Assembly: GCA_964559135.1 (NCBI GenBank)
Contig: CAZLGG010000003.1
Location: forward strand, 2,231 to 66,230
From: an uncultured Planctomycetia bacterium
Lineage (GTDB): Bacteria > Planctomycetota > GCA-002687715 > DRQF01
DNA length: 64,000 nt
Reading direction: 5' to 3'
Of this stretch, positions 33,359 to 56,884 are shown piece after piece (position 1 is the first letter of the stretch; every line of letters starts with the position of its first letter). Position numbers and translations under genes: made by a program. The notes below the pieces were generated by a model. It was not told where the DNA came from. It worked only from the letters and a program-made list of their open reading frames with translations, and did no database searches.

Positions 33359-33442
33359 CGGCGATTTCAAAAAAATCGAACCCTGCTTCGAGCCGTGCGT
33401 CCATGAGGGGCGGAACGCAGTCCTTTGAAACGGAGCAAGAAC

Positions 33443-34369
33443 ATGGATCGACGCGGATTCGTTCGCGGCCTCATCGCGGCGCCGATGGTTTTCGGGCTCG
33501 GGAAGCTGGGCGTCGGGAGCGAGCTTGGCGGCCAGGACGCGGAGGGCCTCGTCAAGATCGGACTGAAGCGCATGAAGGAGTTGGGGCTTCCGGGATTGGT
33601 GATCGTTCCCCCGAAAGACGAGAATCGCCGCATGGAACTCGGGCGAGGTCTCTTTCGACTCGTGAAGGGCATCTCGTCCCCCGAGGCAGACGATTTTGTT
33701 GGTCCCAAGTTTCAAGCGGTGGCGCGACGGGGCAAGGCTGTCACTTGGACCTGCGTCATCATCTGTCTCGAGGAGGAGGAGGCGTGGAAAGAATTCGGTG
33801 AGACGTCGCCGCGCATGGTCATCGACGAGAGGGGCAAGGTCCTGAGGAGAATGGATGATCCCCCGGAGTCCGTGGAGCAGAATCTGGCGAAGAGGCTCAT
33901 CGATCTCGTCCATGGCGCGAAGATCGAGCATCTCGAGGAACGGGTCGCCCGACTGAAGAAGACACTGCCGAAGGAGCTGGCCGGCAGCTACGAGGCCTTC
34001 CTGCGGGACATGGCCGAAAGGGAGGCTCCACTCTTCTCGGTACCGAGAACCGCTGAGTACAAGAAACTCGTGGAACGGGCCAAGGCGTACCTCGAGAGGG
34101 AGCCCAGGCTCTCGGGCTGGTTCGGCCTGGCCCTCCTGCGAATCACGTCACGAAAGAACACCTATCTCGATGCTCTGTTCGACTCACTGCGAAAGGACCG
34201 CCTACCCTTGGGGACGTCCATGCCCCGATTCGTGCCGATGGGCTGCCTGTCCTACACGGAGGTCAAGCCGGGCATGGCGAAACCCAAGGGCGAGGTGATC
34301 GCTTGCGGCATGCCGAGTCTCTCCTCGACAGGGGGGCGGTTTTTGCGTTTCGTGGCGAAAGTGAAGTAG
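33443..34369 (+). CDS. Hypothetical Tat-signal protein (309 aa)
   Basis: ORF 33425..34369 trimmed to MDRRGFVRGLIAAPMVFGLGKLG (twin-arginine motif; GGAGCAAG RBS). Four Cys (TWTCVIIC, MGC, IAC). Stop lies 4 nt before the start of the DUF692 gene. Confidence 0.5.
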   Translation: MDRRGFVRGLIAAPMVFGLGKLGVGSELGGQDAEGLVKIGLKRMKELGLPGLVIVPPKDENRRMELGRGLFRLVKGISSPEADDFVGPKFQAVARRGKAVTWTCVIICLEEEEAWKEFGETSPRMVIDERGKVLRRMDDPPESVEQNLAKRLIDLVHGAKIEHLEERVARLKKTLPKELAGSYEAFLRDMAEREAPLFSVPRTAEYKKLVERAKAYLEREPRLSGWFGLALLRITSRKNTYLDALFDSLRKDRLPLGTSMPRFVPMGCLSYTEVKPGMAKPKGEVIACGMPSLSSTGGRFLRFVAKVK

Positions 34370-35670: not shown

Positions 35671-35742
<72 letters not shown>

Positions 35743-41454: not shown

Positions 41455-42540
41455 ATGTCCAGCGATGCGACGCGACACCGGGTTCTTCACGGCCATGCGG
41501 CCGCCATGGACGGCGTCGCTGACGTCTCGATCGATCTCGTCGTCACATCGCCGCCCTATCCGATGGTGCAGATGTGGGACGACGTGTTTCGGGAAGAGGA
41601 CTCCGGAATCGGGGCGGCCCTCGATCGCGGCGAGGGAGCGCAAGCTTTCGAGGGTATGCACCGCGTTTTGGACGGGGTTTGGGCGGAGTGCCATCGCGTC
41701 CTGAAGCCGGGTGGAATCCTCTGCCTCAACGTCGGGGATGCGACCCGCAAGGTGGGGGAGGAGTTTCGGCTGTATTCGAACCACGCCCGCATCCTCCAGA
41801 CCATGCAGGGCCTGGGTTTCTCGGTCCTCCCGGACATCCTTTGGCGCAAGCCCAACAACGCCCCCAACAAGTTCATGGGTTCCGGGATGCTCCCTGGCGG
41901 CGCCTACGTCACCTATGAACACGAATACATCCTGATCCTCCGAAAGGGAGGTCTGCGAGCTTTTCGAACTCCACAGGAGAAAGCCCGGCGACGTCGCAGC
42001 GCCTATTTTTGGGAGGAACGCAACGTGTGGTTCTCCGATCTTTGGGAGGGCCTCACCGGTGTCGGACAGGGACTGGGGGACAAATCCGTGCGTGCGAGGA
42101 GCGCCGCTTTCCCCTTTGAACTGGCCTACCGTTTGATTCAGATGTATTCGGTGCTGGGCGACGTGGTCCTCGACCCATTCTTGGGAACGGGCACGACCAT
42201 GGCGGCGGCCATCGCCGGCGGGAGAAAGAGCGTGGGCGTCGAAAAGGAGGTTGGTCTGATGGCGACCATCGCATCGACCCTGACGTCCTCGGTCGCGTTG
42301 GGGCGCGAGAGAGCGCAGCGGCGACTCTTGGATCACCTGAGTTTCGTCGAGCAATGGTTGGCGCGGGGCAAGGCGTTGCGCCATGTCAATGAGGTCTATG
42401 GGTTCCCCGTCATGACCAGGCAGGAGGTCCAACTGGACATCGTCGCGCCCGTCGCCATCCACTGCGAGAGGGAGGGGGACTACACCGTGACCCATGAACG
42501 AGCGATGTGCGCGGGCCGGCAGGCGACGTTCGAGGCCTGA
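41455..42540 (+). CDS. Beta-class N4-cytosine/N6-adenine DNA methyltransferase, apparently orphan, with a C-terminal extension of about 90 aa
   Basis: Motif IV DLVVTSPPYPM precedes motif I DPFLGTGTT (beta-class order). No nuclease gene on either side. Confidence 0.75.
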   Translation: MSSDATRHRVLHGHAAAMDGVADVSIDLVVTSPPYPMVQMWDDVFREEDSGIGAALDRGEGAQAFEGMHRVLDGVWAECHRVLKPGGILCLNVGDATRKVGEEFRLYSNHARILQTMQGLGFSVLPDILWRKPNNAPNKFMGSGMLPGGAYVTYEHEYILILRKGGLRAFRTPQEKARRRRSAYFWEERNVWFSDLWEGLTGVGQGLGDKSVRARSAAFPFELAYRLIQMYSVLGDVVLDPFLGTGTTMAAAIAGGRKSVGVEKEVGLMATIASTLTSSVALGRERAQRRLLDHLSFVEQWLARGKALRHVNEVYGFPVMTRQEVQLDIVAPVAIHCEREGDYTVTHERAMCAGRQATFEA

Positions 42541-42555
42541 GCCGATTCGTCCCGA

Positions 42556-44511
42556 TCAGTGAAGGTTGCGGAGCAGAACCGTGAGGTTGCGCGCCGGGCG
42601 CGGATCGTTCGGGTTGAGAGCCAGCGCCTTGCGGAAGAGGAACTCGGCTTCACCGAGTCGCCCCGAATCCATGAGAAGAAGACCCAGGTTGTTCAGCGCG
42701 TCACCGTCGGCCGGTGCAAGAGCGAGAGCGCGCCGATAGGCTTGAATGGCCGCCAGCTTCTTTCCTCGAGCCTCAAGGAGAACCCCCCGATTGTAGTGGG
42801 CGGGCGCCAGATCGGGATGGCGGCTGACAAGGACGTCGAGACGGTGAAGCGCCTCCTCGAGCCGTCCCTTCTCCGCATCGATCTGGGAGATAGCCAGCTC
42901 CACGGAGGGTCGACCCGGTGCTTCGTCGGCGACGCGCCGTAGATCGGCCTCGGCCCCGTCCAGATGTCCCTGTCTCAAGCGCGCGTCGGCCCGCAATTCG
43001 AGCGTCGACCAGAGCTCCTCGCCATGAGGCGCCTTGCGGTCGTCCAGAGTTTCGAGGATACGGTCGGCCCAGCTCTCCGCCCTGGCCGGTCGCCCGGCGA
43101 GCAACCACGCGCGCGCGCCGTCGAACGCAAGGGCGGGGTTCGCGGCCTGACCCCCGAGCCGCTTCTCGATGAGCTTCGCGGCTTCGGCATGGCGACCCAG
43201 ACGTCGGAGGGCGTCCGTCAAAGAAACATCGATGTCGGGAGGATGGACCCAACCCCAGCGATCCCGAGCCTCGAGATGACCCACGAGAGCGAGGAGAGCC
43301 GCCCGAGCGACGGGCCCTTCCTGGGTCCGGATGTGCTCCACGAGGCGGTCGCCCATGAACTCGTGCCAGCGCACGGGCGCGTGGTAGGCGAGAAGACCGA
43401 CAGCCAGGGCAGCGGCGAGGACCCGTCCACGATTCTTTCGGAGTTCTCGGGCCCGCCAGCTCCTGTGAGCGAGAATCACCGCGGCGGCCGTGGACGCACC
43501 GAGGGCCAAAGTGAGGAAGAAGGGAACGACGCGATAGAGGCCTCGGTAGACGGCGAGGGAGAGGAGCACGAAGACCAGCGCCAAGACCTCCTCGCGGAGG
43601 GTGAGATCCCATGGGATGCGGCTGCGGCCCTTGCGCCAGCCCTGGAAGAATGCGGGCTTGGTGAATCTCCACTCGAGGACGCGACCGGAGCAGACGTCCA
43701 CGCAGTCCATGTCCTTCAGACACCGAGGATCGACGACGCGGCCGAACGTGTTGACTTCTTCGCGGACCTGAATGCCGGAGCTACAGGTCCGTGTACAGGC
43801 ATCGCAACCCAGACAGTCGCCCTTGATCGCAATGCGTCCCGGCGAGAGGCCGTCCGCGACTCGAAAGAGCACGCCGTAGGGACAGACGTTCCCGCAGAAA
43901 GAGCGCGAGCCCAGGAGCCAGACGATGACGAAGCCGGCGACGAGAAAGGTGATGACGGCGATGACCGGGCCGGGAAGGTTCCGCGCGTATTCCGTGGTGA
44001 CGAAGGACGCCCAACCCTCGCCGTCGGCGAGCACACGCAGTTGGAAGTCGGGGCGCTGTCCGAGAACGGATTCCGTGGAAGGATAGGCATGCACGAGGAA
44101 CCGGGCCACGGTCGGCCAGACGAACATGTAGAGGGCGGTGAGCGGGGCGATGGCCAAGAGAAGTCTGGAACGTATGGGTTTCGGCCTCAAACCCACCCTC
44201 CGAAGCAGCGCCGCGCAGAGATCCTGCAGAGCCAGGATGTGGCAGCCCCAACCGCAGAAGAACCGCCCGAAGACGAGTGTCGCCAAGAACGCGGCGGACA
44301 TGAACAGGAATCCGGCGGTGATCACGCCGAGCTCGATCGTGTGCATGACCTCGTTCAACTCGAGAGGCGCCAAGGTCTTCCCCGCGAGCCGCCAGTGTAC
44401 GTAGTGAGCGACCATGAGAAGCTGAACAGTGATCAAGATGCCCGCCCGCCAACGGGTGCGACGGGTGTGGGCGGCGCTCTTCAGCTTCCCATGACGACTC
44501 CCGGGTTCCAT
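42556..44511 (-). CDS. NapH/MauN/CcoG-like membrane polyferredoxin (4Fe-4S) fused to C-terminal TPR repeats
   Basis: ORF 42556..44628 trimmed to MEPGSRHGK (GAAGGGAGA RBS), because the longer call overlaps the upstream cytochrome gene by 101 nt. Motifs FCGWGCH, FCGNVCPYG and CLGCDACTRTC, multiple TM helices, then TPR (YNRGVLLEARG…). Confidence 0.6.
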   Translation of the reverse strand: MEPGSRHGKLKSAAHTRRTRWRAGILITVQLLMVAHYVHWRLAGKTLAPLELNEVMHTIELGVITAGFLFMSAAFLATLVFGRFFCGWGCHILALQDLCAALLRRVGLRPKPIRSRLLLAIAPLTALYMFVWPTVARFLVHAYPSTESVLGQRPDFQLRVLADGEGWASFVTTEYARNLPGPVIAVITFLVAGFVIVWLLGSRSFCGNVCPYGVLFRVADGLSPGRIAIKGDCLGCDACTRTCSSGIQVREEVNTFGRVVDPRCLKDMDCVDVCSGRVLEWRFTKPAFFQGWRKGRSRIPWDLTLREEVLALVFVLLSLAVYRGLYRVVPFFLTLALGASTAAAVILAHRSWRARELRKNRGRVLAAALAVGLLAYHAPVRWHEFMGDRLVEHIRTQEGPVARAALLALVGHLEARDRWGWVHPPDIDVSLTDALRRLGRHAEAAKLIEKRLGGQAANPALAFDGARAWLLAGRPARAESWADRILETLDDRKAPHGEELWSTLELRADARLRQGHLDGAEADLRRVADEAPGRPSVELAISQIDAEKGRLEEALHRLDVLVSRHPDLAPAHYNRGVLLEARGKKLAAIQAYRRALALAPADGDALNNLGLLLMDSGRLGEAEFLFRKALALNPNDPRPARNLTVLLRNLH

Positions 44512-44527
44512 GAGGCACAGTCTCCCT

Positions 44528-46573
44528 TCAAGGTTCCGAGGTGATGGACAGTCCGTTGGAGAACGACCAGCCGATGGAACTCGCGGTGTCCGAGGCGAGC
44601 CACTGGGCATAGAACGTCGTTCCGGCAAAGGCTGGAATGAACGGCACCGTGAAATCCAAGGACGCCTGCCCGAAGCCGTCCGCCCCGAGGACGTAGGACA
44701 TATCTGGAGACACGAGCAGAGCGCAGCCCGGGGCGCCGACGGCCGTCAGGTCCAGGGGCAGTCCGATGGCGCCCCATTGCGTGTTGCTGTTCCCAAGCAG
44801 AAGAATGGCGGTGGCGCTCGGCTGCGCCCCGCTCAGGGTCACCTGGAAGTTGGACGATCCGATGGTGGGCTCTCCCGACCACGATGCCGAAAGACCGTTG
44901 CATCCGCTTCCGAACGTCGAGACCGCCTGCGCGCCGGGGCTTGCCCACGTCGTCTCTTCCATGAGATGTCCGAAATACGGCGCCTGGATGTCCTCGAGGG
45001 GATCGCCGTGGCCATCGACCGTCCAATTCTTCGCGTCGGTGAGGAATCGGAACGAGCGGCGGTAGATCAACCGGGCCCTGACCTTGAAGGTGCCGCCGCC
45101 GGGGGGCAACTGGAAGGTGTAGTTGGTAGTGTCGGTCGCGAGGGCGGGGATGCGGTTGTCGAAGAGGATGGAGGTCGCATCCGTGAAAAAAGTTGGGCCG
45201 TTGCCGTTCGCATCGAGGTTGTGCTTCGCGAAGAGCTTGCCCGGAAGTCCGGCATAGTAGCCCTGGGCGGGATCGCCGACGCCTCCGAGGGGATGGATGG
45301 TCTGTGTTCCCGTATCGACGAGCTTTTGACCATCCTCCACCCGCCAGGCTTCGACGAGAAGGATCATGTTGCGGATCGTGACGCCCGTCGGGAGCGCGTG
45401 ACCTGCGTGGGAGTTGGTCACGTCGACCGTCACCTGGAGTTCCGTCGATGTGGGCTGAACACTGACGGTGAGATCCGCAGCATTCTCGAGAAACGCGGGC
45501 GATGTGCCTTCCACGTCGTGAGTGCGGACCTGGGAGGGATCCCGCTGGACGGGCTGCACGACACAGACGGTCGTCTGACCGTTCGGGGGCATATGGCAAT
45601 CCACGCACGTGGCGTAGTTCGGGTCCGCGGGGTTGCCGTAGGGACTGGAGAGCCACTCGTCCCACGTGGGTTCGGAGACGATGCCATTCGGCTCCGCGAA
45701 GTTCCCGTTGCCGTCCGGATCGTTCTTGTCTTGGTGGCACGCGGCGCAGACTGCGGCCTCCAACTGCGGTTGATACGACGGGCGCATGAGCCCGGGGGCC
45801 TCGTAGTCGGCGTCGGGGTAGGTCCCGTATTCCACCTGGTGGGTCAGAAGCGGTTGAGTCGGACGCGTGAACGTCACGGAACTGGGATGGATGCCGGGAA
45901 AGTCGGTCTTCGCGAGGTCGATGTCGGCGACCTTGTGACAGATTTCGCACGAGACGCCGTTGAGTGCCCCCTGGCTGAGCGCACCGATGGGCTCGAGCGC
46001 CGTGAAGGGCTGGGCGATCCAGGGCTCGGGCTGATGGCAGGACTTGCATTCCGACGCCGGGTTGGCTGCCGCGTGAACGGAGCCGGTCGTGTAGACGAAT
46101 CCGCCCATTCCCCCGGTCGTGCCGGTGCCGTCGTAGATGTCGTAGACCCAGAGGTTTTGGCCGGCGTGCGCCATTCTCGAGCCCGTCCATTCGGCGAGCG
46201 CTTGGGGGTGGCAGCCGCCACAGACGTTCGGGTCGAGGAGACCGTAGCTGGGATCGTTGCTTGCGGGGACCGACTCGAGAGTGACGAGGACACCGAAAGC
46301 CGGAGCCGTCACGGTCAATCCCTCGTTGAAGTAACCCTTTTTTCCCGCAACGATGCGAAGGTTCGGTCCGGCGAGACCCGGGAGAGTGAACGTGCCGTTG
46401 GAAGCCGTCGTCGTCTGCGTGGAGGTGGCCTTGAGAGTGACGAGTGCATCAGCGACGGGCGCGCCTGCTGTGTCCAGCACAATGCCGGTGACCTGAGCGG
46501 AAACCGGGGCCAAGAGCAGGCTCAGCGCCATGATGACCGTCGAGAGCCTGGGGCGAATCGAAAAGTGCTGCAT
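44528..46573 (-). CDS. Secreted pentaheme c-type cytochrome (paralog A) with an N-terminal carboxypeptidase-regulatory-like beta domain
   Basis: Five CxxCH motifs (CGGCH, CKSCH, CEICH, CAACH, CVDCH). Signal peptide. Start is 36 nt downstream of norZ and the stop is 16 nt before the polyferredoxin gene. Confidence 0.7.
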   Translation of the reverse strand: MQHFSIRPRLSTVIMALSLLLAPVSAQVTGIVLDTAGAPVADALVTLKATSTQTTTASNGTFTLPGLAGPNLRIVAGKKGYFNEGLTVTAPAFGVLVTLESVPASNDPSYGLLDPNVCGGCHPQALAEWTGSRMAHAGQNLWVYDIYDGTGTTGGMGGFVYTTGSVHAAANPASECKSCHQPEPWIAQPFTALEPIGALSQGALNGVSCEICHKVADIDLAKTDFPGIHPSSVTFTRPTQPLLTHQVEYGTYPDADYEAPGLMRPSYQPQLEAAVCAACHQDKNDPDGNGNFAEPNGIVSEPTWDEWLSSPYGNPADPNYATCVDCHMPPNGQTTVCVVQPVQRDPSQVRTHDVEGTSPAFLENAADLTVSVQPTSTELQVTVDVTNSHAGHALPTGVTIRNMILLVEAWRVEDGQKLVDTGTQTIHPLGGVGDPAQGYYAGLPGKLFAKHNLDANGNGPTFFTDATSILFDNRIPALATDTTNYTFQLPPGGGTFKVRARLIYRRSFRFLTDAKNWTVDGHGDPLEDIQAPYFGHLMEETTWASPGAQAVSTFGSGCNGLSASWSGEPTIGSSNFQVTLSGAQPSATAILLLGNSNTQWGAIGLPLDLTAVGAPGCALLVSPDMSYVLGADGFGQASLDFTVPFIPAFAGTTFYAQWLASDTASSIGWSFSNGLSITSEP

Positions 46574-46609
46574 GTCTGGGAACTCCTTTGTCTGGAATGC
46601 GAGGACGAC

Positions 46610-48949
46610 TCAGCGCACCGGAACCTCGATCTCGGGATGAGATCGGGAGGCCTCGATGGGGTCTTCGGTCTGGGAATCCGGGGCGTCCGGGACGTCTTTC
46701 ATGCGCTGGAGCCCACGGAGGATGAAGACCGTGAGGGGGACCACTCCGCCGAGGAGGAAGATCGCGCCGCCGAGCATCCGCATCCACGTGAAGGTCTGAA
46801 ACGTCGATCCAGCGATGAAGTCGAGGGAGCGCGCCTGCCAAAGGCCCGAGGAAAGAACGACGTTCAGCTGGACCAGCCCCACGGGGAAGGTGTCCAAGAG
46901 GACCATGGCCATGAGCCCGATGTTGATGGACCAGAAGGAGACCCGGATCCATCGAGCATTCCAGGCCGAGGGGGCGAGAATGTACCGGGCGCAGAACAGC
47001 ACCGCGGCGATGGAGAGGTTTCCATAGACGCCCATCAACGCGGCGTGGCCGTGGTTGACCGTCAGATAGGTGCCGTGCTCGTAGTAGTTCACGATGGGAA
47101 GGTTGATGATGAAGCCAAAGACGCCCGCGCCGAGGAAGTTCCAGAAGCTGACCGCCATGAGAAACATGAAGGCTTCCTGGAGTCCGAACCGGCCCTTGCC
47201 GTCTCTCCGACCGTTGTTCTCGCGGCGACGTTCGGCGGGAAGTCTGCGGAAGTGCCAGGCGTCCAGCATCAGCAGGATGAGAGGCACGACCTGCAGCGTC
47301 GAGAACACGCTTCCCACCGCCATGGTCGCCGTCGGTTTGGCGTTCCAATAGAAGTTGTGGGCGATCCCGAGAAACCCGGAGCCCAGGAAGAGAATCACCG
47401 CCAGATAGACGGTCCGCTCCGCGGAGGCGCGGGTCACGAGACCCATGGACACCAAGAACCAGGCGACGATCACCGTCGTGAAGACTTCGAAGAAGCATTC
47501 CGCCCACATGTGAATCACCATCCAGCGCCAGAAGTCCGCGATGACGAAGTTCGTCCGGGGAGACGCCACGAAACTCGAGAGGAAGAGAACCGAAATCCCG
47601 ATCGTCGTGTAGAGGAGCCAGTGGGGAATGGTGAACCAGGATTTTCGATCCAAGGCCGGCTTGACGCCGCGGAAGACGATGACACTCCACAGGACCAGCG
47701 AAGCGAAGAGGATGATCTGGAAGGCCCTCCCGAGTTCGACGAATTCCCAACCCTGGTTGCCGAACCATCTCCATCCGGCGCCGAGGAGCCCTTTCGGTCC
47801 CAAGAGCACGCCGAGCAGGGTGCCGGCCACCACGGTGGCCAGCATGCCGAAGAGGATGTTGACGAGGAGGAGCTGGCGACGGGGCTCCGAGCCCGCGATC
47901 CGGGGTAACGCAAAGATCGATGCGGCAATCCAACAGGTGGCAATCCACAGGACCGAAACCTGGATGTGCCAACTGCGCGTGATGGTCAGCGGGAGCAGGG
48001 CCTGAATGTCGAAACCGAAAAAACGCGTCAACCCCACGAAGTCGTGGATCGTCAGGACTCCGGCCAAGACTTGCAACAGGAACAGGCTGATGGCGACGGC
48101 GAAGAACTTGTAGGTGGCGCGTTGAGTGGGGGTGGGAAGCCGGGCGTCGATGTCTTCGGTCGTCGTGAGGGGCGTATCCGGTCCGGATTCCTTGGCGGTG
48201 AGCGTCTTGAATTTTCCCTGGAGGTACAGGACGAGTCCCAAACCGAGAATGAGGCCCATGGAGCCGACGACGCTCCAGAGGAGGATGGAGCGGCCGGGGC
48301 GATTCCCAGCATCCGGGTCAAAGGGCCAGTCATGAGTGTAGCTCGCCTCTTCGCCGGGGCGTTCCGCGGCGCAGACCCAAGCACCCCAGTAGAAGAACGA
48401 GGCGAGATCGTTCAGCTCCCGGTCATCGCGGATGTAGCGAAGCGGGCGGAAGCCCCGGGGACCGTCACCTCGGAAACTCTCGCGCACCCAGGCGCGTACC
48501 GATTCCAGGCCGGCCTCTCCGGCGGCCGTGAGGGGGAGTGTTTTCGTCTTCTCATCGAAGCGGTTCTCATGAAGCTCCCGACGCACCCCGATCTGAACCA
48601 CTTCCAGCTCATCAGACGTGAGCGCGCGACCCAATCGCGAACGCAGTGCGGCCGTTTCATGGGCCGCCATGCCGAGATAGGCCACGTGAAGAGCCGTGGC
48701 GGTGAAGTCCGGCCCCCGGCCGCCCCCGTCCCCGAACATGCTGCCGTACTGCATGAGCGCGTACTTCTGGAAGACAGCCTGGCCGGCCAGAATGGCGTGC
48801 TCATCGATGAGAACGTCACCGTTCTTCGCTGTGAATCGGGGAAGAGGAGGCGCGTCCTGGTAGGTGCGAATACCCATCCAGAGAACGCCGGACCCTCCGG
48901 CCAGAAGAACGATGAGGAGGGGTATCCAGAGTCTGGGTGAGTTGGTCAT
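46610..48949 (-). CDS. norZ: Quinol-dependent nitric oxide reductase (qNOR), large single subunit
   Basis: 779 aa. N-terminal qNOR extension (…YGSMFGDGGGRGPDFTATALH…) plus a heme-copper oxidase core with conserved His (HMWAECFFE, HNFYWNAKP). GAGAGA RBS. Confidence 0.85.
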   Translation of the reverse strand: MTNSPRLWIPLLIVLLAGGSGVLWMGIRTYQDAPPLPRFTAKNGDVLIDEHAILAGQAVFQKYALMQYGSMFGDGGGRGPDFTATALHVAYLGMAAHETAALRSRLGRALTSDELEVVQIGVRRELHENRFDEKTKTLPLTAAGEAGLESVRAWVRESFRGDGPRGFRPLRYIRDDRELNDLASFFYWGAWVCAAERPGEEASYTHDWPFDPDAGNRPGRSILLWSVVGSMGLILGLGLVLYLQGKFKTLTAKESGPDTPLTTTEDIDARLPTPTQRATYKFFAVAISLFLLQVLAGVLTIHDFVGLTRFFGFDIQALLPLTITRSWHIQVSVLWIATCWIAASIFALPRIAGSEPRRQLLLVNILFGMLATVVAGTLLGVLLGPKGLLGAGWRWFGNQGWEFVELGRAFQIILFASLVLWSVIVFRGVKPALDRKSWFTIPHWLLYTTIGISVLFLSSFVASPRTNFVIADFWRWMVIHMWAECFFEVFTTVIVAWFLVSMGLVTRASAERTVYLAVILFLGSGFLGIAHNFYWNAKPTATMAVGSVFSTLQVVPLILLMLDAWHFRRLPAERRRENNGRRDGKGRFGLQEAFMFLMAVSFWNFLGAGVFGFIINLPIVNYYEHGTYLTVNHGHAALMGVYGNLSIAAVLFCARYILAPSAWNARWIRVSFWSINIGLMAMVLLDTFPVGLVQLNVVLSSGLWQARSLDFIAGSTFQTFTWMRMLGGAIFLLGGVVPLTVFILRGLQRMKDVPDAPDSQTEDPIEASRSHPEIEVPVR

Positions 48950-49121
48950 GTTTCGTCTCTCGGAACGGCGGGATCACTGCTTGTGTGCGGATTCTCGCCG
49001 TCTGTGTCCTATGTGACAAAGAAAAAACAGACGCTTTGTACGATTATGTGTGAAATGGTAATATCTGCCCGCGAATGGAAAGTGATTTCACCGAAATCGG
49101 TCCCCCACCCAGGAGCCTGAC

Positions 49122-49556
49122 ATGAGTTTGGGAAACGCGATTCTACGGGCGAGGCAGCAAAGGAAGTTGACGCAGGGGGACGTGGGGCGCAAGGCCGGTC
49201 TCCAGACCTCCTATATCTCCCGCATCGAGAACGGACGGGTTCAGCCCACCATGGGAACGGTCGGGCGGATCGCTGAAGCGCTTGACGTCTCCCTTTCGGA
49301 TCTCTTTCGACTCGCCGAACACGCGAAGGAGACGAAATTGCATCGCTGTCCGGTCAGCCAGACGGGCGACTGCATCGGCGAGTTGATTCGCAACGCCACC
49401 GGGCGTCCGCCGGACGGAGGAAAGGCCCACTACGGGCCGGAGGAACTCCACATCCTACGGATGGCCGACTACCTCGTCGTCCACGGCACGACGGACGATC
49501 GCCGCGCTCTCGCCATCGTCCTCGAAGGTTTCCTCGCACGAAAAACCCGTTCCTGA
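49122..49556 (+). CDS. XRE-family HTH transcriptional regulator with a C-terminal Cys-containing domain
   Basis: N-terminal HTH LTQGDVGRKAGLQTSYISRIENGRVQP. C-terminal CPVSQTGDC. Divergent from norZ across an AT-rich 172-bp gap. Confidence 0.7.
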   Translation: MSLGNAILRARQQRKLTQGDVGRKAGLQTSYISRIENGRVQPTMGTVGRIAEALDVSLSDLFRLAEHAKETKLHRCPVSQTGDCIGELIRNATGRPPDGGKAHYGPEELHILRMADYLVVHGTTDDRRALAIVLEGFLARKTRS

Positions 49557-49584: not shown

Positions 49585-51702
49585 TCAGGGCTCCGCCGTG
49601 ACGGAGAGTCCGTTCGAGAAGGCCCAACCGAGCGGAATGGATGGATCCGCGGCCAGCCATTGAGCGTGAAGGGTGAAGCCGGCCAACGCGGGGACGAAGG
49701 GGATCATCGACACGAGGCTGGCGTTGCCGAAACCATCGGTTGCCGTGAAGAACGAGAGGTCCGGCGACACGAGGAGAGAGCAACCGGGCGCTCCGACCGA
49801 CGTGAGGTCGAGAGGCAGGGGAGTGAGGCCCCATTGCGTCGTGCTATTCCCCACGATGAGAATCGCTGTCGCCCCCGGCTGAGCTCCACCGAGGGTCAAC
49901 GTGAAGTCGCTCGTTCCGATACTGGGTTCCCCCGTCCACGAGGCCACGAGCCCGTTGCATCCCGTCCCGAAAGACGTCACGGCTTGCGCGCCGGGCGTCG
50001 ACCACGTGGCTTCTTCCATCAGATGACCGAAGTAGGGCGCTTGGAGATCCTCGAGGGGTTCTCCGTGCCCCGTCGTCGTCCACCCCTTGGCGTCCACGAG
50101 ATCGCGATAAGCGCGTCGGTAGATCAGTCGCGCACGCACTTTGTAACTGCCGCCTCCGGGAAGGAGCTGAAAGGAATAGTTGGTCGTGTCCGTGGCTAGG
50201 GCCGGCAGACGGGTGTCGTACTGAACCGAGGCCGCTTCGGTGAAGAAGCTCGGCCCGTTGCCGTTGGCATCCAAGGTGACCTTGGCGAAGGTCTTGCCGG
50301 GAAGACCGGCGAAGTAACCCTGTGCCGGGCTCCCCACGCCCCCGATGGCGTCGATCTGTTGCGATCCCGTGTCGATGAGTTTCTGGCCGTCCTCGATACG
50401 CCATGCCTCGACCAGGAGGATCATGTTGCGGATGGGGACTCCGGTGGGCACATGATGTCCGGCGTGATTGTTCGTGGCGTCGACGGTGACCTGCAACTCC
50501 GACGACGTCTGCTGAACCGTGAGACTCAGATCGACGGCGTTCTCCAGATACTCCGGCGAGGTCCCCAGTATGTCGTGGGTGCGCACTTCGGAGGGATCCC
50601 TTTGGACCGGTGCAAGGGCACACAGGTTCGTCTGCCCGTTCGGAGGCATATGGCAGTCCGTGCATGTTTCGTAGAGGGGGTTGGTCGGATCGGAGTAGGG
50701 GCTCGCCAACCATTCGTTCCACGTGGGCTCGGCTACGATTCCGTTCGGCTCGTCGTAGATGCCGTTCTCGTCCGGATCATTCTTGTCCTGATGGCAGGTC
50801 GCGCACATCTCCGCTTTGAGCTGAGGCTGGTAGGAAGGGCGCATGAGGCCCGGGATGCTGAAGTCGGCATCGGGAAGCGTTCCGTATTGCACCTGATGGG
50901 ACGTGATCGGCGAGGCGGGTCGGTTGAACGTGACAGCCGTCGCATGCACGCCCGGGTAGTCGAGCTTCGTTGTGTCGACATCCGCGATCTTGTGGCAGAC
51001 CTCGCACGATACACCGTTCGCCGCGGCTTGACTGAGAGCGTTCAGGGGGTCCATCGGACTGAACGCTTGAGCAATCCAGATCTGAGGCTGGTGGCAGGCG
51101 GCGCATTCGCCCCCCGGCAGGGCTGTCGCATGGACGGAGTCGGTGGTGTAGACGAAGCCGCCATTGCCCCCCGGAGTGCCTGAGCCGTCGAAGACGTCAT
51201 AGACCCAGAGGTTTTGCCCCGTATGCGCCATGCGCGAGCCGGTCCATTCCACCTCCTGCTGGGGGTGGCATCCTCCGCACACGGGGGGATCGAGGAACGT
51301 GTATCCCGGGTCGTTGCCCACGACGACCATCTCCAGGTTGAGGATGATGCCCATCGCGGGGGCGGTGACGATGACGGACGCGTTGTAATAGCCCTTCTTG
51401 CCGGCGACGATCTTCAAGTTGGACCCCGACAGCGATGGCAAGGAAAACGATCCGTCCGCTGCCGTCGTCGTGCGATTGAGGTCGCCCTGCAGAGAAACAG
51501 TGGCGTCGGCGAGTGGCGACCCCGCAGTGTCCATCACGAAGCCCGAGACCTGACCGATGAGATCGGCGGAAAGGAGGAAAGCCACCAGAACTGCGAGGGG
51601 AGTGAATTTCGACTTCATTGCAAATGGGCCCTTGGAAACGGATCGGCGCATCCCCAACGGAGGACGCGGGGGTATTCTCCCGAAATCGGTCAGCCGCGGC
51701 AA
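49585..51702 (-). CDS. Secreted pentaheme c-type cytochrome (paralog B of 44528..46573)
   Basis: Five CxxCH motifs (CGGCH, CAACH, CEVCH, CATCH, CTDCH). Collinear with paralog A at high amino-acid similarity across the whole length. Confidence 0.7.
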   Translation of the reverse strand: MPRLTDFGRIPPRPPLGMRRSVSKGPFAMKSKFTPLAVLVAFLLSADLIGQVSGFVMDTAGSPLADATVSLQGDLNRTTTAADGSFSLPSLSGSNLKIVAGKKGYYNASVIVTAPAMGIILNLEMVVVGNDPGYTFLDPPVCGGCHPQQEVEWTGSRMAHTGQNLWVYDVFDGSGTPGGNGGFVYTTDSVHATALPGGECAACHQPQIWIAQAFSPMDPLNALSQAAANGVSCEVCHKIADVDTTKLDYPGVHATAVTFNRPASPITSHQVQYGTLPDADFSIPGLMRPSYQPQLKAEMCATCHQDKNDPDENGIYDEPNGIVAEPTWNEWLASPYSDPTNPLYETCTDCHMPPNGQTNLCALAPVQRDPSEVRTHDILGTSPEYLENAVDLSLTVQQTSSELQVTVDATNNHAGHHVPTGVPIRNMILLVEAWRIEDGQKLIDTGSQQIDAIGGVGSPAQGYFAGLPGKTFAKVTLDANGNGPSFFTEAASVQYDTRLPALATDTTNYSFQLLPGGGSYKVRARLIYRRAYRDLVDAKGWTTTGHGEPLEDLQAPYFGHLMEEATWSTPGAQAVTSFGTGCNGLVASWTGEPSIGTSDFTLTLGGAQPGATAILIVGNSTTQWGLTPLPLDLTSVGAPGCSLLVSPDLSFFTATDGFGNASLVSMIPFVPALAGFTLHAQWLAADPSIPLGWAFSNGLSVTAEP

Positions 51703-51818
51703 AAGAAAAACGTCTGCGCCCCCATGATTTCGGCGCGCACCTTGGCGGGTATCAAGGGAAAGCCCTTTCCCCGTGTGACTTCTACCGGGCGAGGGGGATT
51801 CTTGTCATCGTGGGAGGG

Positions 51819-54800
51819 ATGAATCCGCTCCGCAAAGAAAGCCCGCCAAGTCTCTTCGCGTCGGCTCTTTGGGCCGGCCTTCTCGCCGGTTCGGCTTTGG
51901 CGGCGAGGGATGTCGCCGGGCTTTGGGACCCGAGCGAGGAAGGCGCTTTCTCTGCGGGGGCGATTCTGCTCGCCCGCGTGTTGATCCTCGGAGCCGGGGC
52001 GGGCTTGGTCTTGGCCGCCGTCGTGCTGGCGCATCGCGGAGCCTTCCGGCTCATCCGACGCTGGGAGTCCCTGGCTCGCTGGGTACCGGCCCTCCTTTTC
52101 GCCGCCTTGCTCATGACTCTTTGGCGTGACCTCTCGACGCGAGTTCTTTCCGGGCCCGCGGTATCGAAGAGCGCCTGGGCGGACCCCATGAGTCGCGCCC
52201 TGCCGTGGCTCCTGATGGGAATGTTCGCAGCCACCCTGCGCATCGTCGCGGCCCATGTGCGGGCCTGTTCCCGCTGGAGCCTTTGGAGAACCCTCGCCCT
52301 GGGGATGGGCTACATCGGCGTGGGATTCCTTCTCGACGCCGCCGATCGCAGATTCTACCCAGGTCTCTACCTCTACCTCCACGACGTGCTCGCTGCCACG
52401 GCGCTCATCTCCGTCGCGGTGGGCATAGGGGTGGTGGTCGATCGTTGGGGTGGAACCCGTCGAGCGACATGGGCAGCCCTGCTCATCGTTTTCGGAGCCA
52501 TCCTGGCCGATCGCATCGTGACGATCGGTCCCCGTGAACGGTTCCTTCTCCACGCTCGAACCCTCGAGGGGCGCCGAGTCTTGGAGCTCTGGAGGGCGCT
52601 CGGCCTCGACAAAACGAGCAGCCCAGCAGGAACTCTTCCGGTGGAGGATTTCCGCGAGGCGCGAAGAAGGAGTCTGGAGCGATCCGCGGCCGTGGGGCGG
52701 CAGCGTTCCTCGTCCGTCCGAAACGTCGTCTGGCTGACCGTCGACACGCTGAGACGGGATCACTTGGGGTGCTATGGCTATCAGCGGCACGCGACGTCCC
52801 CGAATTTGGATCGGTTCGCCAAAAAGGCCGCGGTGTTCGAGTCGGCGCACGCTCAGTTTCCAATCACGAGTCTCTCCTTTCAGTCGATGTTCTACGGCCG
52901 TTTCCCGTCCGCCACCCCCTTGTTCCAGGCGATGCAGGGACACCAACTCGACCCGCCCTTGCTCACCCTGGCGGAGACTCTTCGCGCGGGCGGCCTGCGC
53001 ACGGCGGGTGTTCCCGCCATCGCCGGTGATGACCTGAAGCACCCGGCCTACCGTGTCCTGGGCAAGGGTTTCGACTTGCTCCCCTCCGCTCGCGAAAGAC
53101 GCGACATCAGCGAGCCCGCCCAGGCCGGACGGGCGATCGAATACCTCTCCTCCCTCGCCGCCGATCGATTCTTCCTTTGGGTGCACCTCATGGGGCCCCA
53201 CCACCCCTACGTCGTGCGCAGTCACGACTTCGGCACGAGCGACGTGGACCGCTACGATTCCGAGATCGCGGAGACCGATCGTTGGATCGGGCGTATTCTG
53301 GGCGCACTCGCTGACCTGGGACTCGAAGACGACACGGTCGTCGTCATCAATGCCGACCACGGCGAGGCCTTCGGCGAACACGCATCCCGCTACCACGGCA
53401 CCACGCTCTACGAGGAGCAAATCGCGGTTCCGCTCCTGATCCACGTGCCGGGACTGCCCGCCCGACGGCTGCGACAGGCGGTGGGTAACGTGGACATCAT
53501 GCCCACTGTCTTGGCGCTCATGGATGTCCCGCCTGCCCACGCCCAGCAAGGCCGCAACCTCTTGGGACTGCTGAGGGACGGGGCGAACAGCGCCGCCGCG
53601 CCGATGTCCATCACGTTCGCGGAGATTCCTCCGGCGATTCCCGCCATGTCACCGGCGAACACCGACCGTTTCGCGGCGATTGGGGAGCGGTGGAAGTTCA
53701 TTCGGAATGAACGGGCCGGCTTCAACGAGCTCTACGACCTCGTCACCGATCCGGAGGAGACCAAGAACCGGGCGGGGGAGGGGTTGGATCAGGAGGCCTG
53801 GCTCGACGCCGCCGTTTCGGTCTTCAGGGAGGAGTCGGCGACGCTCGTCCGAAACAAAGCGGAAGAAACGGTCGAAGAAAAGCTGCACCGGGCTCGGTCG
53901 GCGCTCGCGGTGAAATCCATCCCTGCCCGATGTGATGCCCTTCTCCGCCTCCTCCGGGAGAAGGACCCGGACCTGAACCCCTTTTTCAAAGAGGTCTGGG
54001 ACGATCCCGGGCGGCACTACCTGTTGAAGAACCTCATCGTGTTGATGGCCCCCGAAGTCCTCGGCGACGACTTTCCCCAGGCGGCCCAAGCGATTCTGAA
54101 GAACCCCGTCTCGGCAGGCACGCTCGTGGCCCTCCTGGAGGTCATCGACCGGAACGTGAAGGCGGACCCGCCCCAGTCGTTGATTGACGCGCTGGCAGGG
54201 CGACTCTCCGCTCCCCACGCCGTCGCCCGCCGCGCCGCAGAGGTTTTGGCCCGCTGGGGGGATTCACGGGGGCGTGCCGTCCTCGAGGCGGATCTCAGCA
54301 GTGACGATCCCCTCCTCGCTCGCCGCGCCGCCGTGGGGCTCGCTCGGTTGGACTCCCGAGCGGGGGAGAACATTCTCGCCGCGTCCATCCTGCGTGACCT
54401 CGCCGACACCGACGCGGTGACGGCGGTGGTGAATTCCTTGACTCGACTTCGAAGCAAGACCGTGCTTCGGACCCTCTTGGAAGTGGCGCAGAATCGCTAT
54501 CTGCATTATGAGATCAAACGGGCCATCCTGAGATATTTCGAGAGCTTGGACCGTCTGGATGAGGGGGAGTTCGGGTTGGTGGGTCTTCTCGCGGGATGGG
54601 ACCCCGAGGTAGGACGTCTCGTGGGGGAGACCGTCACGAAAAGGCTGGGCAAGGAGCGCCTCATGGGGCTGCGGGACGCGGCGCGGCGCGCCGACTCGGC
54701 GAAGGAGTTGGGCAAGCAGGGGCGCGCGCTGGACGCCGCGGGAGCCTTTCTCGACGCGGCGGCAGACATGAGAACGCCCCAGGGACGAGGCCGTTTTCTG

Positions 54801-55790
54801 CTGGAAGCCGGTCGCCAGGCTTGGTTGGCCGGCACGGCCGGGCAGGCGACACTGAAGAACGTCCTGCAACGATTGGGAGAGGCGTTCTCCCGCGCCGAGG
54901 GCGCTCCCGTCACCGCGTTGAGCCGGGAGATCGAAGACCTTCGACGTCGAACGGAGGATGTCGGGGCACCGCCGAAGGAAGGGCATCTGCGTGTCATGCA
55001 GGTGCTTCCGCTGTGTCGTCGCCCGCTTTGGTCGGGTCAGGAGATCCGTTTCGAGGTGACGGTCCAGAACACGGGCACGACGTTCCTTTCCGGCGGCGAC
55101 TGGCCGGGGGCGGTGCGCTTGGCCGTGGTGTGGCCGAAGGATGCCAAGGCTCCCCCTTCGCCGGCCATGCCCGTGCCGTTCGGGGGCATCGCCCCCGGCG
55201 AATCGGTCCGCGTCTATCTGGATGCCCGGGCGCCTGCCCGTGCGGGGGTGTTCTCCGCCACGGTCCGGGTCCAGCCGGGGAGGAAAGGGGCATGGGCCGC
55301 TCAGGTGAAGGGGGCGCGCTGTCACCGGGTGAGCGTCGTCGGGGCCGATCCGGCCGGGATAGAGCCGCGAGGACTGACCCTATCCGGCCGCGATCTTTTG
55401 ACCCTTTCCTGGAGGAGCCCGGCCCTCATCGGCGGCGTCGTGAACAACCGGGAGGAGGTGGAGTTGGAAGCCGTCCTCGTGGATCCGATACTCACCTTGC
55501 CGCCGCTGAAGAGTGTGAACGGCCCGTTGACTCTTCGCGTCGAACTGGCTCTCGACAGTCTGGGCCTTTTGGCGAAGGACGAGATCGAGTGCTATGCGTC
55601 TTGGAATGCGGAGGGGCGATTTCGAGATGCCTGGCGCCGTGTGCGGGCCATCCGCCCGGACGGAACGGTCCGTAGGCTCGAGTTCCATATTCCCCCGAAT
55701 GACCGGGGGATGAGCCCGCGGTTTTTGCGAATCGATCCAGGAACCTTCCCCCATCTCGTCACGATCAAGAGCGTGAGGATTCTCCCGTGA
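51819..55790 (+). CDS. Large multidomain membrane protein: N-terminal TM region, sulfatase-like (alkaline-phosphatase superfamily) transferase/hydrolase domain, HEAT/PBS-lyase-like repeats and a C-terminal beta domain
   Basis: ORF 51618..55790 (TTG) trimmed to MNPLRKE (GGGAGGG just upstream); start uncertain. Motif VVWLTVDTLRRDHLGCYGYQRHATSPNLDRFA; HEAT-like ARRAAEVLARWGDSRGRAVL…. Confidence 0.5.
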   Translation: MNPLRKESPPSLFASALWAGLLAGSALAARDVAGLWDPSEEGAFSAGAILLARVLILGAGAGLVLAAVVLAHRGAFRLIRRWESLARWVPALLFAALLMTLWRDLSTRVLSGPAVSKSAWADPMSRALPWLLMGMFAATLRIVAAHVRACSRWSLWRTLALGMGYIGVGFLLDAADRRFYPGLYLYLHDVLAATALISVAVGIGVVVDRWGGTRRATWAALLIVFGAILADRIVTIGPRERFLLHARTLEGRRVLELWRALGLDKTSSPAGTLPVEDFREARRRSLERSAAVGRQRSSSVRNVVWLTVDTLRRDHLGCYGYQRHATSPNLDRFAKKAAVFESAHAQFPITSLSFQSMFYGRFPSATPLFQAMQGHQLDPPLLTLAETLRAGGLRTAGVPAIAGDDLKHPAYRVLGKGFDLLPSARERRDISEPAQAGRAIEYLSSLAADRFFLWVHLMGPHHPYVVRSHDFGTSDVDRYDSEIAETDRWIGRILGALADLGLEDDTVVVINADHGEAFGEHASRYHGTTLYEEQIAVPLLIHVPGLPARRLRQAVGNVDIMPTVLALMDVPPAHAQQGRNLLGLLRDGANSAAAPMSITFAEIPPAIPAMSPANTDRFAAIGERWKFIRNERAGFNELYDLVTDPEETKNRAGEGLDQEAWLDAAVSVFREESATLVRNKAEETVEEKLHRARSALAVKSIPARCDALLRLLREKDPDLNPFFKEVWDDPGRHYLLKNLIVLMAPEVLGDDFPQAAQAILKNPVSAGTLVALLEVIDRNVKADPPQSLIDALAGRLSAPHAVARRAAEVLARWGDSRGRAVLEADLSSDDPLLARRAAVGLARLDSRAGENILAASILRDLADTDAVTAVVNSLTRLRSKTVLRTLLEVAQNRYLHYEIKRAILRYFESLDRLDEGEFGLVGLLAGWDPEVGRLVGETVTKRLGKERLMGLRDAARRADSAKELGKQGRALDAAGAFLDAAADMRTPQGRGRFLLEAGRQAWLAGTAGQATLKNVLQRLGEAFSRAEGAPVTALSREIEDLRRRTEDVGAPPKEGHLRVMQVLPLCRRPLWSGQEIRFEVTVQNTGTTFLSGGDWPGAVRLAVVWPKDAKAPPSPAMPVPFGGIAPGESVRVYLDARAPARAGVFSATVRVQPGRKGAWAAQVKGARCHRVSVVGADPAGIEPRGLTLSGRDLLTLSWRSPALIGGVVNNREEVELEAVLVDPILTLPPLKSVNGPLTLRVELALDSLGLLAKDEIECYASWNAEGRFRDAWRRVRAIRPDGTVRRLEFHIPPNDRGMSPRFLRIDPGTFPHLVTIKSVRILP

Positions 55791-56884
55791 CCACGCCCCG
55801 GGTATGGCTGCTCATCGGAAACAAGGCTGGCGACAACACCCAGTTGCGAGCCCTCGCCAAGGCCCTCGGATGGCCGAGCACCGAGAAGCGTTGCCGCTAT
55901 CGTGCGACGGAGCTCCTTACGAACAGACTCCTCGGGACCACGCTGCTGGGAATCCATAGATCGTTGTCGGACCCTCTCGAACCGGAGTGGCCGGATCTCG
56001 TTCTCACGGCCGGGCGAAGGAACGAACCGATTGCTCGGTGGATCGCCAGGGAATCGGGCGGGGCGACCCGCATCGTCCACGTCGGACGCCCCTGGTCTTC
56101 TCCGGATCGATTCGATCTGGTCATCACCACTCCGCAGTACGACCTCCCCGCATCGGAACGCGTGCTCGTTGTCGACATGCCCCTTCATGCGGTGCGTCCG
56201 GAGGCGCTGGCCGAGGCTGCGCAAAGTTGGAGAACGGAGTTCCTCGATCTGCCCAGGCCTCGCATCGCGGTTCTGGTCGGTGGTCCGACGGGGTTCATCG
56301 GTTTCCGAGAACGAACCGTTCTCAGGCTTGCCCGCCAGGCGGAGACCCTCGCCCGGTGGCGGGGTGGGTCGCTCTTGGTGACCACCAGCGCGAGGACGCC
56401 CAGGTTTGCCGCGGCGCTCCTCGAGCGAGAGCTCACCGTCCCCGCGCGGATCTACCCCCATGGTCGGGAGAGGAATCCGTACCTCGCGTTCCTCGCCATC
56501 GCGGACGAGTTCATCGTCACGGGTGAGAGCGCGTCGATGCTGGCGGAGGCTTCGGCGACCGAAAAGCCGATCCACGTCTTCGACCCGACGCGAGAAGACG
56601 GTCCCTGGACCCGCCTGCGTCTCCGCGCTCTGGGGCGCCTGGCAAGAGAAGCCTTGGGGCCCCGCCGAATGAAGCGAGATCCGTTGGGCATTCCACGGGC
56701 CCTGGTGGATCGGGGGCGCGCCTGCTGGTTGGGGAACCCACCGCCGAACGGCGCGCCCCGGGTTTTGGCGACCAGCGATCTCGAGCGCGCCGCGCGTGCC
56801 GTTCGCGACCTGTTTCCCGATGGGGAACGCTCCGGGGATCAGGCTCCTTCGGAGGCGTCCATGACTCCGAAGGAAGGCAGCTGA
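55787..56884 (+). CDS. ELM1/DUF1022-family protein (mitochondrial-fission ELM1-like, predicted glycosyltransferase-like)
   Basis: GTG start overlapping the upstream stop (GTGA). LIGNKAGDNTQ N-terminus and FIVTGESASMLAEA motif typical of the ELM1 family. Confidence 0.55.
   Translation: MTTPRVWLLIGNKAGDNTQLRALAKALGWPSTEKRCRYRATELLTNRLLGTTLLGIHRSLSDPLEPEWPDLVLTAGRRNEPIARWIARESGGATRIVHVGRPWSSPDRFDLVITTPQYDLPASERVLVVDMPLHAVRPEALAEAAQSWRTEFLDLPRPRIAVLVGGPTGFIGFRERTVLRLARQAETLARWRGGSLLVTTSARTPRFAAALLERELTVPARIYPHGRERNPYLAFLAIADEFIVTGESASMLAEASATEKPIHVFDPTREDGPWTRLRLRALGRLAREALGPRRMKRDPLGIPRALVDRGRACWLGNPPPNGAPRVLATSDLERAARAVRDLFPDGERSGDQAPSEASMTPKEGS

Follow-up and report, generated by a model that had tools for sequence, protein, structure and literature searches.

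Putative nitric oxide (NO) dismutases (NODs) are defined by the replacement of one FeB-ligating histidine by asparagine and of a catalytic glutamate by glutamine, together with the lack of a proper quinol site (Ettwig et al., PMC3413370; PMC10286720). Murali et al. placed NOD inside the clade of the quinol-dependent NO reductases (qNORs, NorZ) (PMC11214002), and genes in metagenome-assembled genomes (MAGs) of Scalindua score as nod with published hidden Markov models (PMC10359470). The Planctomycetia-type clade is reported to be only ~40% identical to Alpha-type Nod. Elbon et al. (bioRxiv 10.1101/2023.11.21.568154), who include S. japonica among the taxa with an illustrated nod neighborhood and treat its protein as a Planctomycetia-type Nod, describe nod genes of this type as having no conserved or functionally related gene neighborhood. 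Whether nod-type enzymes carry out NO dismutation, yielding N2 and O2, or NO reduction with another donor is a question that matters for the nitrogen cycle, and nod genes serve as markers of “oxygenic denitrification”. Here we describe a locus in a 64-kb stretch of DNA from an uncultured Planctomycetia bacterium (contig CAZLGG010000003.1; the whole stretch is called the window below), in which a nod-type gene is followed, in a predicted operon, by genes for a secreted penta-heme c-type cytochrome (CYT1) and a NapH-like polyferredoxin fused to a tetratricopeptide repeat (TPR) domain (PFD). The gene adds a new member to a known enzyme family; its operon context contradicts the published lack of related nod neighbors, and a nod-type gene tied to a multiheme cytochrome and a membrane Fe-S protein offers concrete candidate partners for assay. 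The explanation that we favor, tentatively and as falling somewhat short of probable, is that the genes form a co-regulated operon in which the polyferredoxin feeds the cytochrome and the cytochrome serves the NOD-type enzyme.

The nod-type gene (46610..48949, minus strand) encodes a single polypeptide of 779 aa in which a COX1-type fold (Pfam PF00115, 175 bits) is fused to a heme-less N-terminal cytochrome-c-like domain (PF22085, NorB type, 136 bits), and there is no CxxCH in the sequence. This architecture is that of the single-subunit, qNOR-derived putative NODs of “Ca. Methylomirabilis oxyfera”/HdN1 and of the Planctomycetia-type proteins of Scalindua, as well as that of the qNORs of known structure (3AYF, 6QQ5, and 6L3H). 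Against solved qNORs the product gave E-values of 1e-109 to 1e-169, the best PDB match by sequence being the qNOR of G. stearothermophilus (Gs; 3AYF, E 7e-169, 40% identity). Its named relatives are proteins of Planctomycetes and Scalindua, including a “qNor” of S. japonica that is 56% identical.

The active site sets the protein apart from a qNOR (residues are numbered here as in Gs qNOR unless window numbering is indicated). His328, Phe336, His508, Glu512, Glu516, His559, and the heme ligands are unchanged, while His560 is replaced by Asn (in the motif AHNFYW), Glu581 by Gln (STLQVVPL), and both Glu332 and Asp746 by Gly. In window numbering, H302 corresponds to H328, G306 to E332, H480 and E484 to H508 and E512, H531 and N532 to H559 and H560, Q553 to E581, and G728 to D746; W722-x-R724 is also kept. 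Because of the His560→Asn and Asp746→Gly changes, the product has neither the three-His FeB site of a qNOR (His508, His559, and His560, with Glu512) nor the quinol-binding Asp. In the quinol pocket Asp746 and Glu332 are lost and His328 and Phe336 retained, so that of the site formed by His328, Glu332, and Asp746 (His305 and Asp724 in AxqNOR) the histidine alone remains. Both of the substitutions that define a NOD are present, with Asn532 in place of an FeB histidine and Gln553 in place of the catalytic-site Glu581. A structure of AxqNOR has a quinol analogue hydrogen-bonded by His305 and Asp724, and mutating the homologous His, Arg, and Asp of the Persephonella qNOR led to the loss of all activity (PMC13087809). 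Gs Asp746 is the equivalent of AxqNOR Asp724. The product retains His328, which is usually replaced as well in published nod sequences (PMC10286720). It also retains Glu512, in which it probably differs from the putative NODs.

We aligned the 120 best database homologues and read off their signature residues. The replacements His560→Asn, Glu581→Gln, and Asp746→Gly are present in every sequence (120/120), and position 332 is mostly Gly. A canonical qNOR from another of the loci compared here (L026), aligned in the same way, displayed HEFDHEEHHE, the complete pattern, which shows that the approach is able to discriminate. These results contradict the initial annotation of this DNA, in which the gene was a qNOR (norZ) fed by quinol. 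That it is nevertheless a plain quinol-dependent NorZ with two extra accessory genes would agree with the qNOR fold and domain organization, the identity to 3AYF, and the retention of His328, His508, Glu512, and His559. We consider this very improbable, however, as it is contradicted at the sequence level by the invariant substitutions and by Glu332→Gly, by the intact pattern of the L026 enzyme, and by the classification of the relatives as nod in the literature. Based on its signature residues and named relatives, we assign the product as a NOD-type enzyme (Planctomycetia-type Nod-like), a qNOR derivative predicted to keep both hemes, two FeB histidines, Glu512, and the Trp-x-Arg electron-entry element that is common to qNOR and the cytochrome-dependent cNOR (PMC13087809). 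A literature search for biochemical characterization of NOD found nothing relevant.

CYT1 (44528..46573, minus strand, 681 aa) lies 36 nt downstream of the nod-type gene (46574-46609), with a ribosome-binding site (AAGGAG, 46588-46583) 8-9 bases ahead of its ATG, and PFD (42556..44511, minus strand, 651 aa) follows after another 16 nt (44512-44527), with the ribosome-binding site AGGGAG at 44527-44522. PFD was trimmed from an open reading frame (ORF) of 42556..44628, and the trimmed start matches the N-termini of its homologues in alignment. No terminator-like or promoter-like site was found within either junction, and a single sigma-70-like site was found between positions 41000 and 52500, at 49019-48991, upstream of the nod-type gene. 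Downstream, the unit is ended by a convergent DNA methylase gene (41455..42540). Gene calling based on third-position GC content selected the same frames as the three minus-strand ORFs, and the base composition of the region is uniform with that of the flanking DNA. The ORFs are not chance ones, because each protein has hundreds to thousands of homologues. With co-directional genes, short gaps, and no internal terminator or promoter seen, the three genes are predicted to be one transcription unit, and we infer their co-transcription. In these respects the initial annotation was borne out: ORFs, Pfam, and homologues agree with its gene coordinates and its start for PFD, the gaps and ribosome-binding sites are as it described, and the layout does differ from that of a standard nor operon. 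It missed a paralogue of CYT1, a divergent XRE-type regulator, and the non-canonical active site of its “norZ”.

The five CxxCH motifs of CYT1 (exactly five, at residues 118, 176, 209, 276, and 323) and the hydrophobic, signal-peptide-like (Sec-type) stretch at its N-terminus match the earlier description of a secreted cytochrome. The signal peptide is followed by a transthyretin-like CarboxypepD_reg domain, the five-heme region, a beta-sandwich, and a C-terminal domain (aa ~545-681) that, among the loci compared, was found only in Planctomycetota. Pfam detected CarboxypepD_reg and weak multiheme matches; scans of the beta-sandwich region and the C-terminal domain gave no usable matches. The AlphaFold model of CYT1 has a pLDDT of 69 (moderate confidence), and in a Foldseek search with it the penta-heme c552 of Thermochromatium tepidum (5ZE8) was the sole heme-domain match (E 1.2e-12, TM (target) 0.53, 472 columns), with a five-heme alpha-helical cap and an Ig-like beta-sandwich that superimpose on that structure. 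A cytochrome profile also finds 5ZE8 by sequence (E 7e-5) and, weakly, MccA. As judged from the model, CYT1 is a remote structural homologue of c552, ~19% identical to it and unlike it in having the additional transthyretin-like and C-terminal domains.

The cap and beta-sandwich are also found in PtdA and in ExtKL/MccSep, a five-heme polysulfide reductase with an Ig-like domain, a His/Cys-ligated heme, and a selenocysteine or cysteine in a loop of that domain (bioRxiv 10.1101/2025.11.18.688581). The NCBIfam model for ExtKL (NF040886) matched residues 114-420 of CYT1 at 31 bits against a cut-off of 250. In an alignment of 24 cytochrome sequences the core (residues ~115-540) is highly conserved; all 10 CxxCH cysteines and several His and Met residues are invariant, and no other cysteine is. 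A MccSep-type active site with its His/Cys ligation and selenocysteine was rejected for CYT1 on that ground. Because the cysteine that ligates heme 2 and the selenocysteine or cysteine are absent, the cytochrome represents a different family on the ExtKL/MccSep fold, and it has an invariant loop, G391-H392-x-x-P395-x-G397, instead. No porin or ptd-type neighbors of CYT1 were found. In marine Alphaproteobacteria that transcribe nod, a c552-like penta-heme gene, ptdA, is transcribed as well, although it is unlinked there (Elbon et al.). The family of CYT1 is large and unnamed, with 929 matches at E ≤ 1e-5 in a 90% database and 174 and 960 clusters at 50% identity for E ≤ 1e-30 and E ≤ 1e-10, respectively. 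Many members end in a T9SS tail, an FlgD-Ig domain, or a dockerin module, and these variable C-terminal modules indicate an extracytoplasmic, often cell-surface, location for the homologues.

PFD contains two Fer4_5 domains (46 bits against a cut-off of 22), ferredoxin motifs, and a TPR array by Pfam, and the initial annotation had correctly noted FCGWGCH, FCGNVCPYG, CLGCDACTRTC, and the C-terminal TPRs. Its best NCBIfam matches were to NapH and MauN (TIGR02163, 48.0 bits against 213.05; NF007013, 45.4 against 234), so that Fer4_5 alone exceeds its cut-off. Besides the two CX3C(P/H) motifs, the cysteines form C-x2-C-x2-C-x3-C and C-x5-C-x3-C in a basic loop (aa 202-302). Among aligned homologues His36 and His39 are invariant, a TLAPLELNEVMHTLELG segment is nearly so, and GRFFCxWxCH, SRSFCxxxCPYG, one four-Cys ferredoxin motif, and one three-Cys motif are conserved. 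Hydropathy and charge suggest about 7 transmembrane helices with the N-terminus inside, which would probably place the Fe-S domain in the cytoplasm, where that of NapH is located, and the TPR domain (aa ~381-651) in the periplasm. PFD is similar to NapH, NosH-NosR, MauN, and CcoG in having two CX3C(P/H) motifs after transmembrane helices and a predicted cytoplasmic, ferredoxin-like Cys-rich domain. It differs from the NapH-type polyferredoxins in having three extra transmembrane helices, a TPR domain of ~270 aa, only three cysteines in its second Cys motif, and no NapG-type partner. The fusion of polyferredoxin and TPR is kept end to end in >1,100 proteins, mostly annotated “tetratricopeptide repeat protein”. 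A Foldseek search of the PDB with the PFD model (pLDDT 85) returned only generic TPR proteins and no match for the membrane Fe-S part, and a literature search for a system of NapH-like, TPR, and penta-heme components found nothing relevant.

These features raise the question of whether PFD is a maturation or activation factor, combining a CcoG/NosR/MauN-like reductase with a CcmI/NrfG-like TPR chaperone, and not a respiratory quinol dehydrogenase. The roles ascribed to CcoG, NosR, and MauN are to reduce metals or to maintain enzymes, not to carry bulk electron flow, and a protein of this kind would keep the partner cytochrome, or a metal center of the heme-copper-family enzyme, reduced and competent for assembly. 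The Fer4_5 CX3CP architecture is common to NapH, NosR, and MauN, a membrane-anchored periplasmic TPR domain resembles the CcmI and NrfG apocytochrome chaperones (many PFD homologues have precomputed TPR_CcmH_CycH matches), and the partner cytochromes are diverse, some of them destined for export. Yet the NapH and MauN scores are far under their cut-offs, CcoG and CcmI models were not matched, TPR families cross-match non-specifically, and three quarters of the cytochrome loci with full flanks have no adjacent polyferredoxin. We regard such a role as improbable.

Upstream of the operon and divergent from it is a gene for an XRE/HTH_3 regulator by Pfam (49122..49556, plus strand, 144 aa). Its C-terminal part, for which a Pfam scan gave no usable match, contains H-x-C-P-[VI]-S-x-[ST]-G-[DEQ]-C, a motif conserved across seven aligned orthologues and a plausible candidate for a redox-, metal-, or NO-sensing site, possibly in a novel domain. 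Members of this regulator family adjoin nod or the polyferredoxin-cytochrome pair in seven of the loci compared (L001, L002, L006-L009, and L087). Beyond the regulator is the second penta-heme cytochrome gene, CYT2 (49585..51618, minus strand, read from an internal ATG as in the L001 gene call), whose product has the same architecture as CYT1 and is 66% identical to it; CYT1 is the copy nearer to all orthologues. CYT2 is predicted to be transcribed separately, from a promoter-like element in the region 51619-51830 that closely resembles that of the nod-type gene. The two elements read TTTTTTCTTTGTCA-N17-GAGAAT (48991..49027, minus strand, upstream of the nod-type gene) and TTTTTCTTTTGCCG-N17-GAGAAT (51674..51710, minus strand, upstream of CYT2). 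The pattern TTTTTCTTT-N22-GAGAAT has two matches in the 64 kb, only upstream of these two genes, against 0.03 expected. In addition, the 12-mer GACCGATTTCGG occurs exactly twice in the window (0.02 expected), in the intergenic region between the regulator and nod-type genes (49091..49102, minus strand) and in the spacer of the CYT2 element (51680..51691, minus strand), and its core recurs at the corresponding positions of L006 and L087. The intergenic regions beside the regulator in the distant loci L002, L007, and L009 yielded no shared operator; only the within-genus elements hold. The regulator, the CYT2 paralogue, and the shared promoter elements suggest a single regulon.

Comparison with other genomes revealed how widely this arrangement occurs. 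The closest records, HyVt-576 (L006, 91% identity) and GCA_054013915 (L001), contain the whole series of sulfatase, CYT2, HTH regulator, nod-CYT1-PFD, and methylase, CYT2 included, and a short contig (L087) has the HTH regulator and nod-CYT1; all three share 89-91% identity with the window. The regulator of a second lineage (L007, Planctomycetota SJ480, 62-64% identity) is followed by nod-DUF1800-DUF1501-PFD-CYT, and a further locus in the same MAG (L009) has the regulator and PFD-CYT with no nod. In another MAG (L008), positions 8001-8376 retain the regulator gene and, from nod, its promoter region and the initial ~17 codons, with ~93% DNA identity to L007, and are followed by PFD-CYT; by its sequence this is a deletion relic of nod. 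A small ORF at L008 that clustered with NOR was rejected as a second gene, as it consists of what is left of the 5' end of nod and the region upstream. L002 (63% identity) has the regulator and nod alone, and the nod-type genes of L003-L005 are accompanied by neither the module nor the regulator. The triplet that the initial annotation had singled out is thus kept in full only in very close relatives, with a rearranged version in one other lineage.

We also surveyed 80 metagenomic nod-type loci whose products are 50-91% identical to that of the window. The cytochrome was found in L087 only and a polyferredoxin homologue in L150 only, where it is 37% identical and lies on the opposite strand at a contig end, ~670 nt away from a nod-type gene of 55% identity. 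An Rrf2 regulator adjoins 30 of the genes, and DUF1800 and/or DUF1501 genes adjoin 8. DUF1800/DUF1501 pairs directly beside nod-type genes were observed in many Planctomycetota-like loci, namely L003, L004, L007, L088-L091, L101, L102, L107, and L131; the window has a DUF1800 gene as well (7196-8485, minus strand), far from the operon.

From the side of the cytochrome, 78 genomic loci were surveyed, 51 of them flanked by 3 kb or more on each side. Polyferredoxin was the commonest neighbor, being adjacent in 16 of the 78 and in 13 of the 51 with full flanks. The pairs, which occur in Planctomycetota, Phycisphaerae, Gemmatimonadota, and Eisenbacteria, are mostly co-directional, in either order, and mostly without any NOR gene. 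Polyferredoxin homologues were also seen beside other genes, encoding a multiheme protein (L084), large proteins with weak or faint cytochrome-c matches (L085), and an FlgD-Ig protein (L086). At L085 (9113-13200) the polyferredoxin-TPR homologue is preceded by a gene for a divergent 893-aa protein with a faint cytochrome-c match and followed by genes for an HZS_alpha-domain (hydrazine-synthase-alpha-like) protein and a beta-propeller/cytochrome c554-like protein. Rrf2 regulators are near the cytochrome in about 9 loci; their identification as NsrR was rejected (28 bits against 182). In 6-7 loci from several phyla (L014, L026, L035, L053, L074, and L079) a cluster for a molybdoenzyme of the type II DMSO-reductase family, with alpha, beta, and chaperone subunits and a cytochrome-c/EB_dh subunit, is directly beside the cytochrome. 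We dropped an assignment of these clusters as Nar, as NCBIfam supports only the family (~330 bits against a cut-off of 985) and the alpha subunit is far below every curated substrate-specific model. The L026 cytochrome has as further neighbors the canonical qNOR mentioned above and a hemerythrin-domain gene weakly similar to the YtfE/RIC/DnrN repair proteins. A tyrosine phenol-lyase gene is found near cytochrome, polyferredoxin, or nod-type genes in three unrelated loci (L026 11754-13304, L021 14918-16294, and L004 12870-14258), adjoining an Rrf2 regulator in all three; the L026 copy scores above the TIGR02618 cut-off, at 776 bits. Overall, the gene neighborhoods identify the cytochrome and polyferredoxin as a recurrent, independently mobile pair, which only one Planctomycetota group has joined to nod in an operon; a second group has a looser version.

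These distributions bear most directly on the alternative that the neighbors are functionally independent, with the cytochrome and polyferredoxin serving as a general module for electron transfer outside the cytoplasm or outside the cell, acting for example on an insoluble or periplasmic substrate, which by happenstance in this genus lies behind a self-sufficient NOD-type enzyme that detoxifies NO. Such independence would be expected of a module that has no NOR gene in most of its loci, that persists in L008 after the loss of nod, and whose cytochromes have variable C-terminal domains of secretion or anchor type. It would also suit nod-type genes that occur without the module in L002-L005 and in most metagenomic loci, and the report of Elbon et al. 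on their neighborhoods. Set against it are the 36- and 16-nt junctions with no promoter or terminator signals, the second cluster of nod with PFD-CYT in another order (L007), the one regulator family in front of both nod and PFD-CYT, the cis-elements that CYT2 shares with the nod promoter region, and the repeated occurrence of the module near qNOR, hemerythrin-domain, and Rrf2 genes. We consider independence unlikely, though it is the alternative to which we give the most weight.

We therefore return to the proposal that the operon couples the three proteins. The coupling is more than chance, we argue, because of the tight junctions, the differently ordered L007 cluster, the one regulator family before either component, and the promoter elements shared with CYT2. 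It is plausibly functional and lineage-specific. We infer how it would work, including the membrane topology, which way electrons run, and any physical or functional interaction of the cytochrome with the NOD-type enzyme. PFD would link the membrane quinone pool or a cytoplasmic reductant to the penta-heme cytochrome, which its periplasmic TPR domain would most likely dock or handle. The most attractive role for the cytochrome would be to stand in for the lost quinol site as the source of electrons, in a manner like that of NorC in cNOR; alternatively, it may process NO-derived species at the periplasmic face. An independent point in favor of the proposal is that marine Alphaproteobacteria in which nod is transcribed transcribe ptdA too (Elbon et al.). 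The regulator with the Cys motif would control the operon, its own gene, and CYT2. The likeness to cNOR (NorCB) is an analogy of function only, in which a c-type cytochrome would pass electrons to heme b at the periplasmic face, with Trp-x-Arg kept. NorC, a mono-heme subunit anchored in the membrane, is invariably encoded together with NorB, whereas the candidate donor here is a secreted penta-heme protein of 681 aa whose linkage to the enzyme is limited to a narrow lineage.

Several observations weigh against this proposal. Neither a cytochrome nor a polyferredoxin is near the nod-type gene in 78 of the 80 metagenomic loci, and because of this the NOD-type family must generally work without the module. 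The rarity of the linkage, the survival of the module without nod in L008, and the surface-type anchors of many cytochrome homologues speak against an obligatory partnership; a cytochrome at the cell surface would also be ill placed to act as a periplasmic relay for an enzyme of the inner membrane. Gene order varies by lineage, being CYT-PFD in one and PFD-CYT in another. The Fe-S clusters are predicted to be cytoplasmic, which leaves a gap in the proposed electron path to a periplasmic cytochrome, and residual quinol use by the enzyme is possible because His328 of the quinol pocket is kept. Finally, no nir, nos, other nor, or other denitrification genes were found within the window. The accessory redox or NO-handling module proposed in the initial annotation thus gains from the L007 cluster, the shared regulator family, and the shared promoter elements, and loses from the many nod-type loci without partners.

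A broader reading would take the cytochrome and polyferredoxin as the missing electron entry of NOD-type enzymes without the qNOR quinol site, at least this branch as cytochrome-dependent NO reductases, and the module as a general coupler to the quinone pool. We think this improbable as a whole. If true, these enzymes would represent a third mode of electron input beside those of cNOR and qNOR, and would not be donor-independent, O2-forming dismutases, and the cytochrome-polyferredoxin module would serve periplasm-facing N-oxide enzymes generally. The locus also draws attention to a cytochrome/polyferredoxin-TPR module that is widespread, has no name, and recurs close to genes for redox functions and NO stress in Planctomycetota, Gemmatimonadota, Eisenbacteria, and other groups. 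Even if the coupling is only positional, genes annotated as norZ or qNOR in such genomes need to be checked at the level of residues.

The rest of the window is of a housekeeping nature, with genes for SecDF, a class II ribonucleotide reductase, and an aminoacyl-tRNA synthetase, for example, and no RNA element turned up close to the locus in Rfam and tRNA scans. Two other regions drew our attention. One is a gene for an MbnB/TglH/ChrH-type enzyme that modifies ribosomally synthesized and post-translationally modified peptides (34373-35629, plus strand), which is preceded by two ORFs with no Pfam match (32093-33358 and 33425-34369) and followed by a tRNA-Gly(CCC) at 35671. The other (55787-59529) consists of two adjoining convergent genes with Elm1-type (Mito_fiss_Elm1) domains, in one of which the product (896 aa) has a long extension at the N-terminus.

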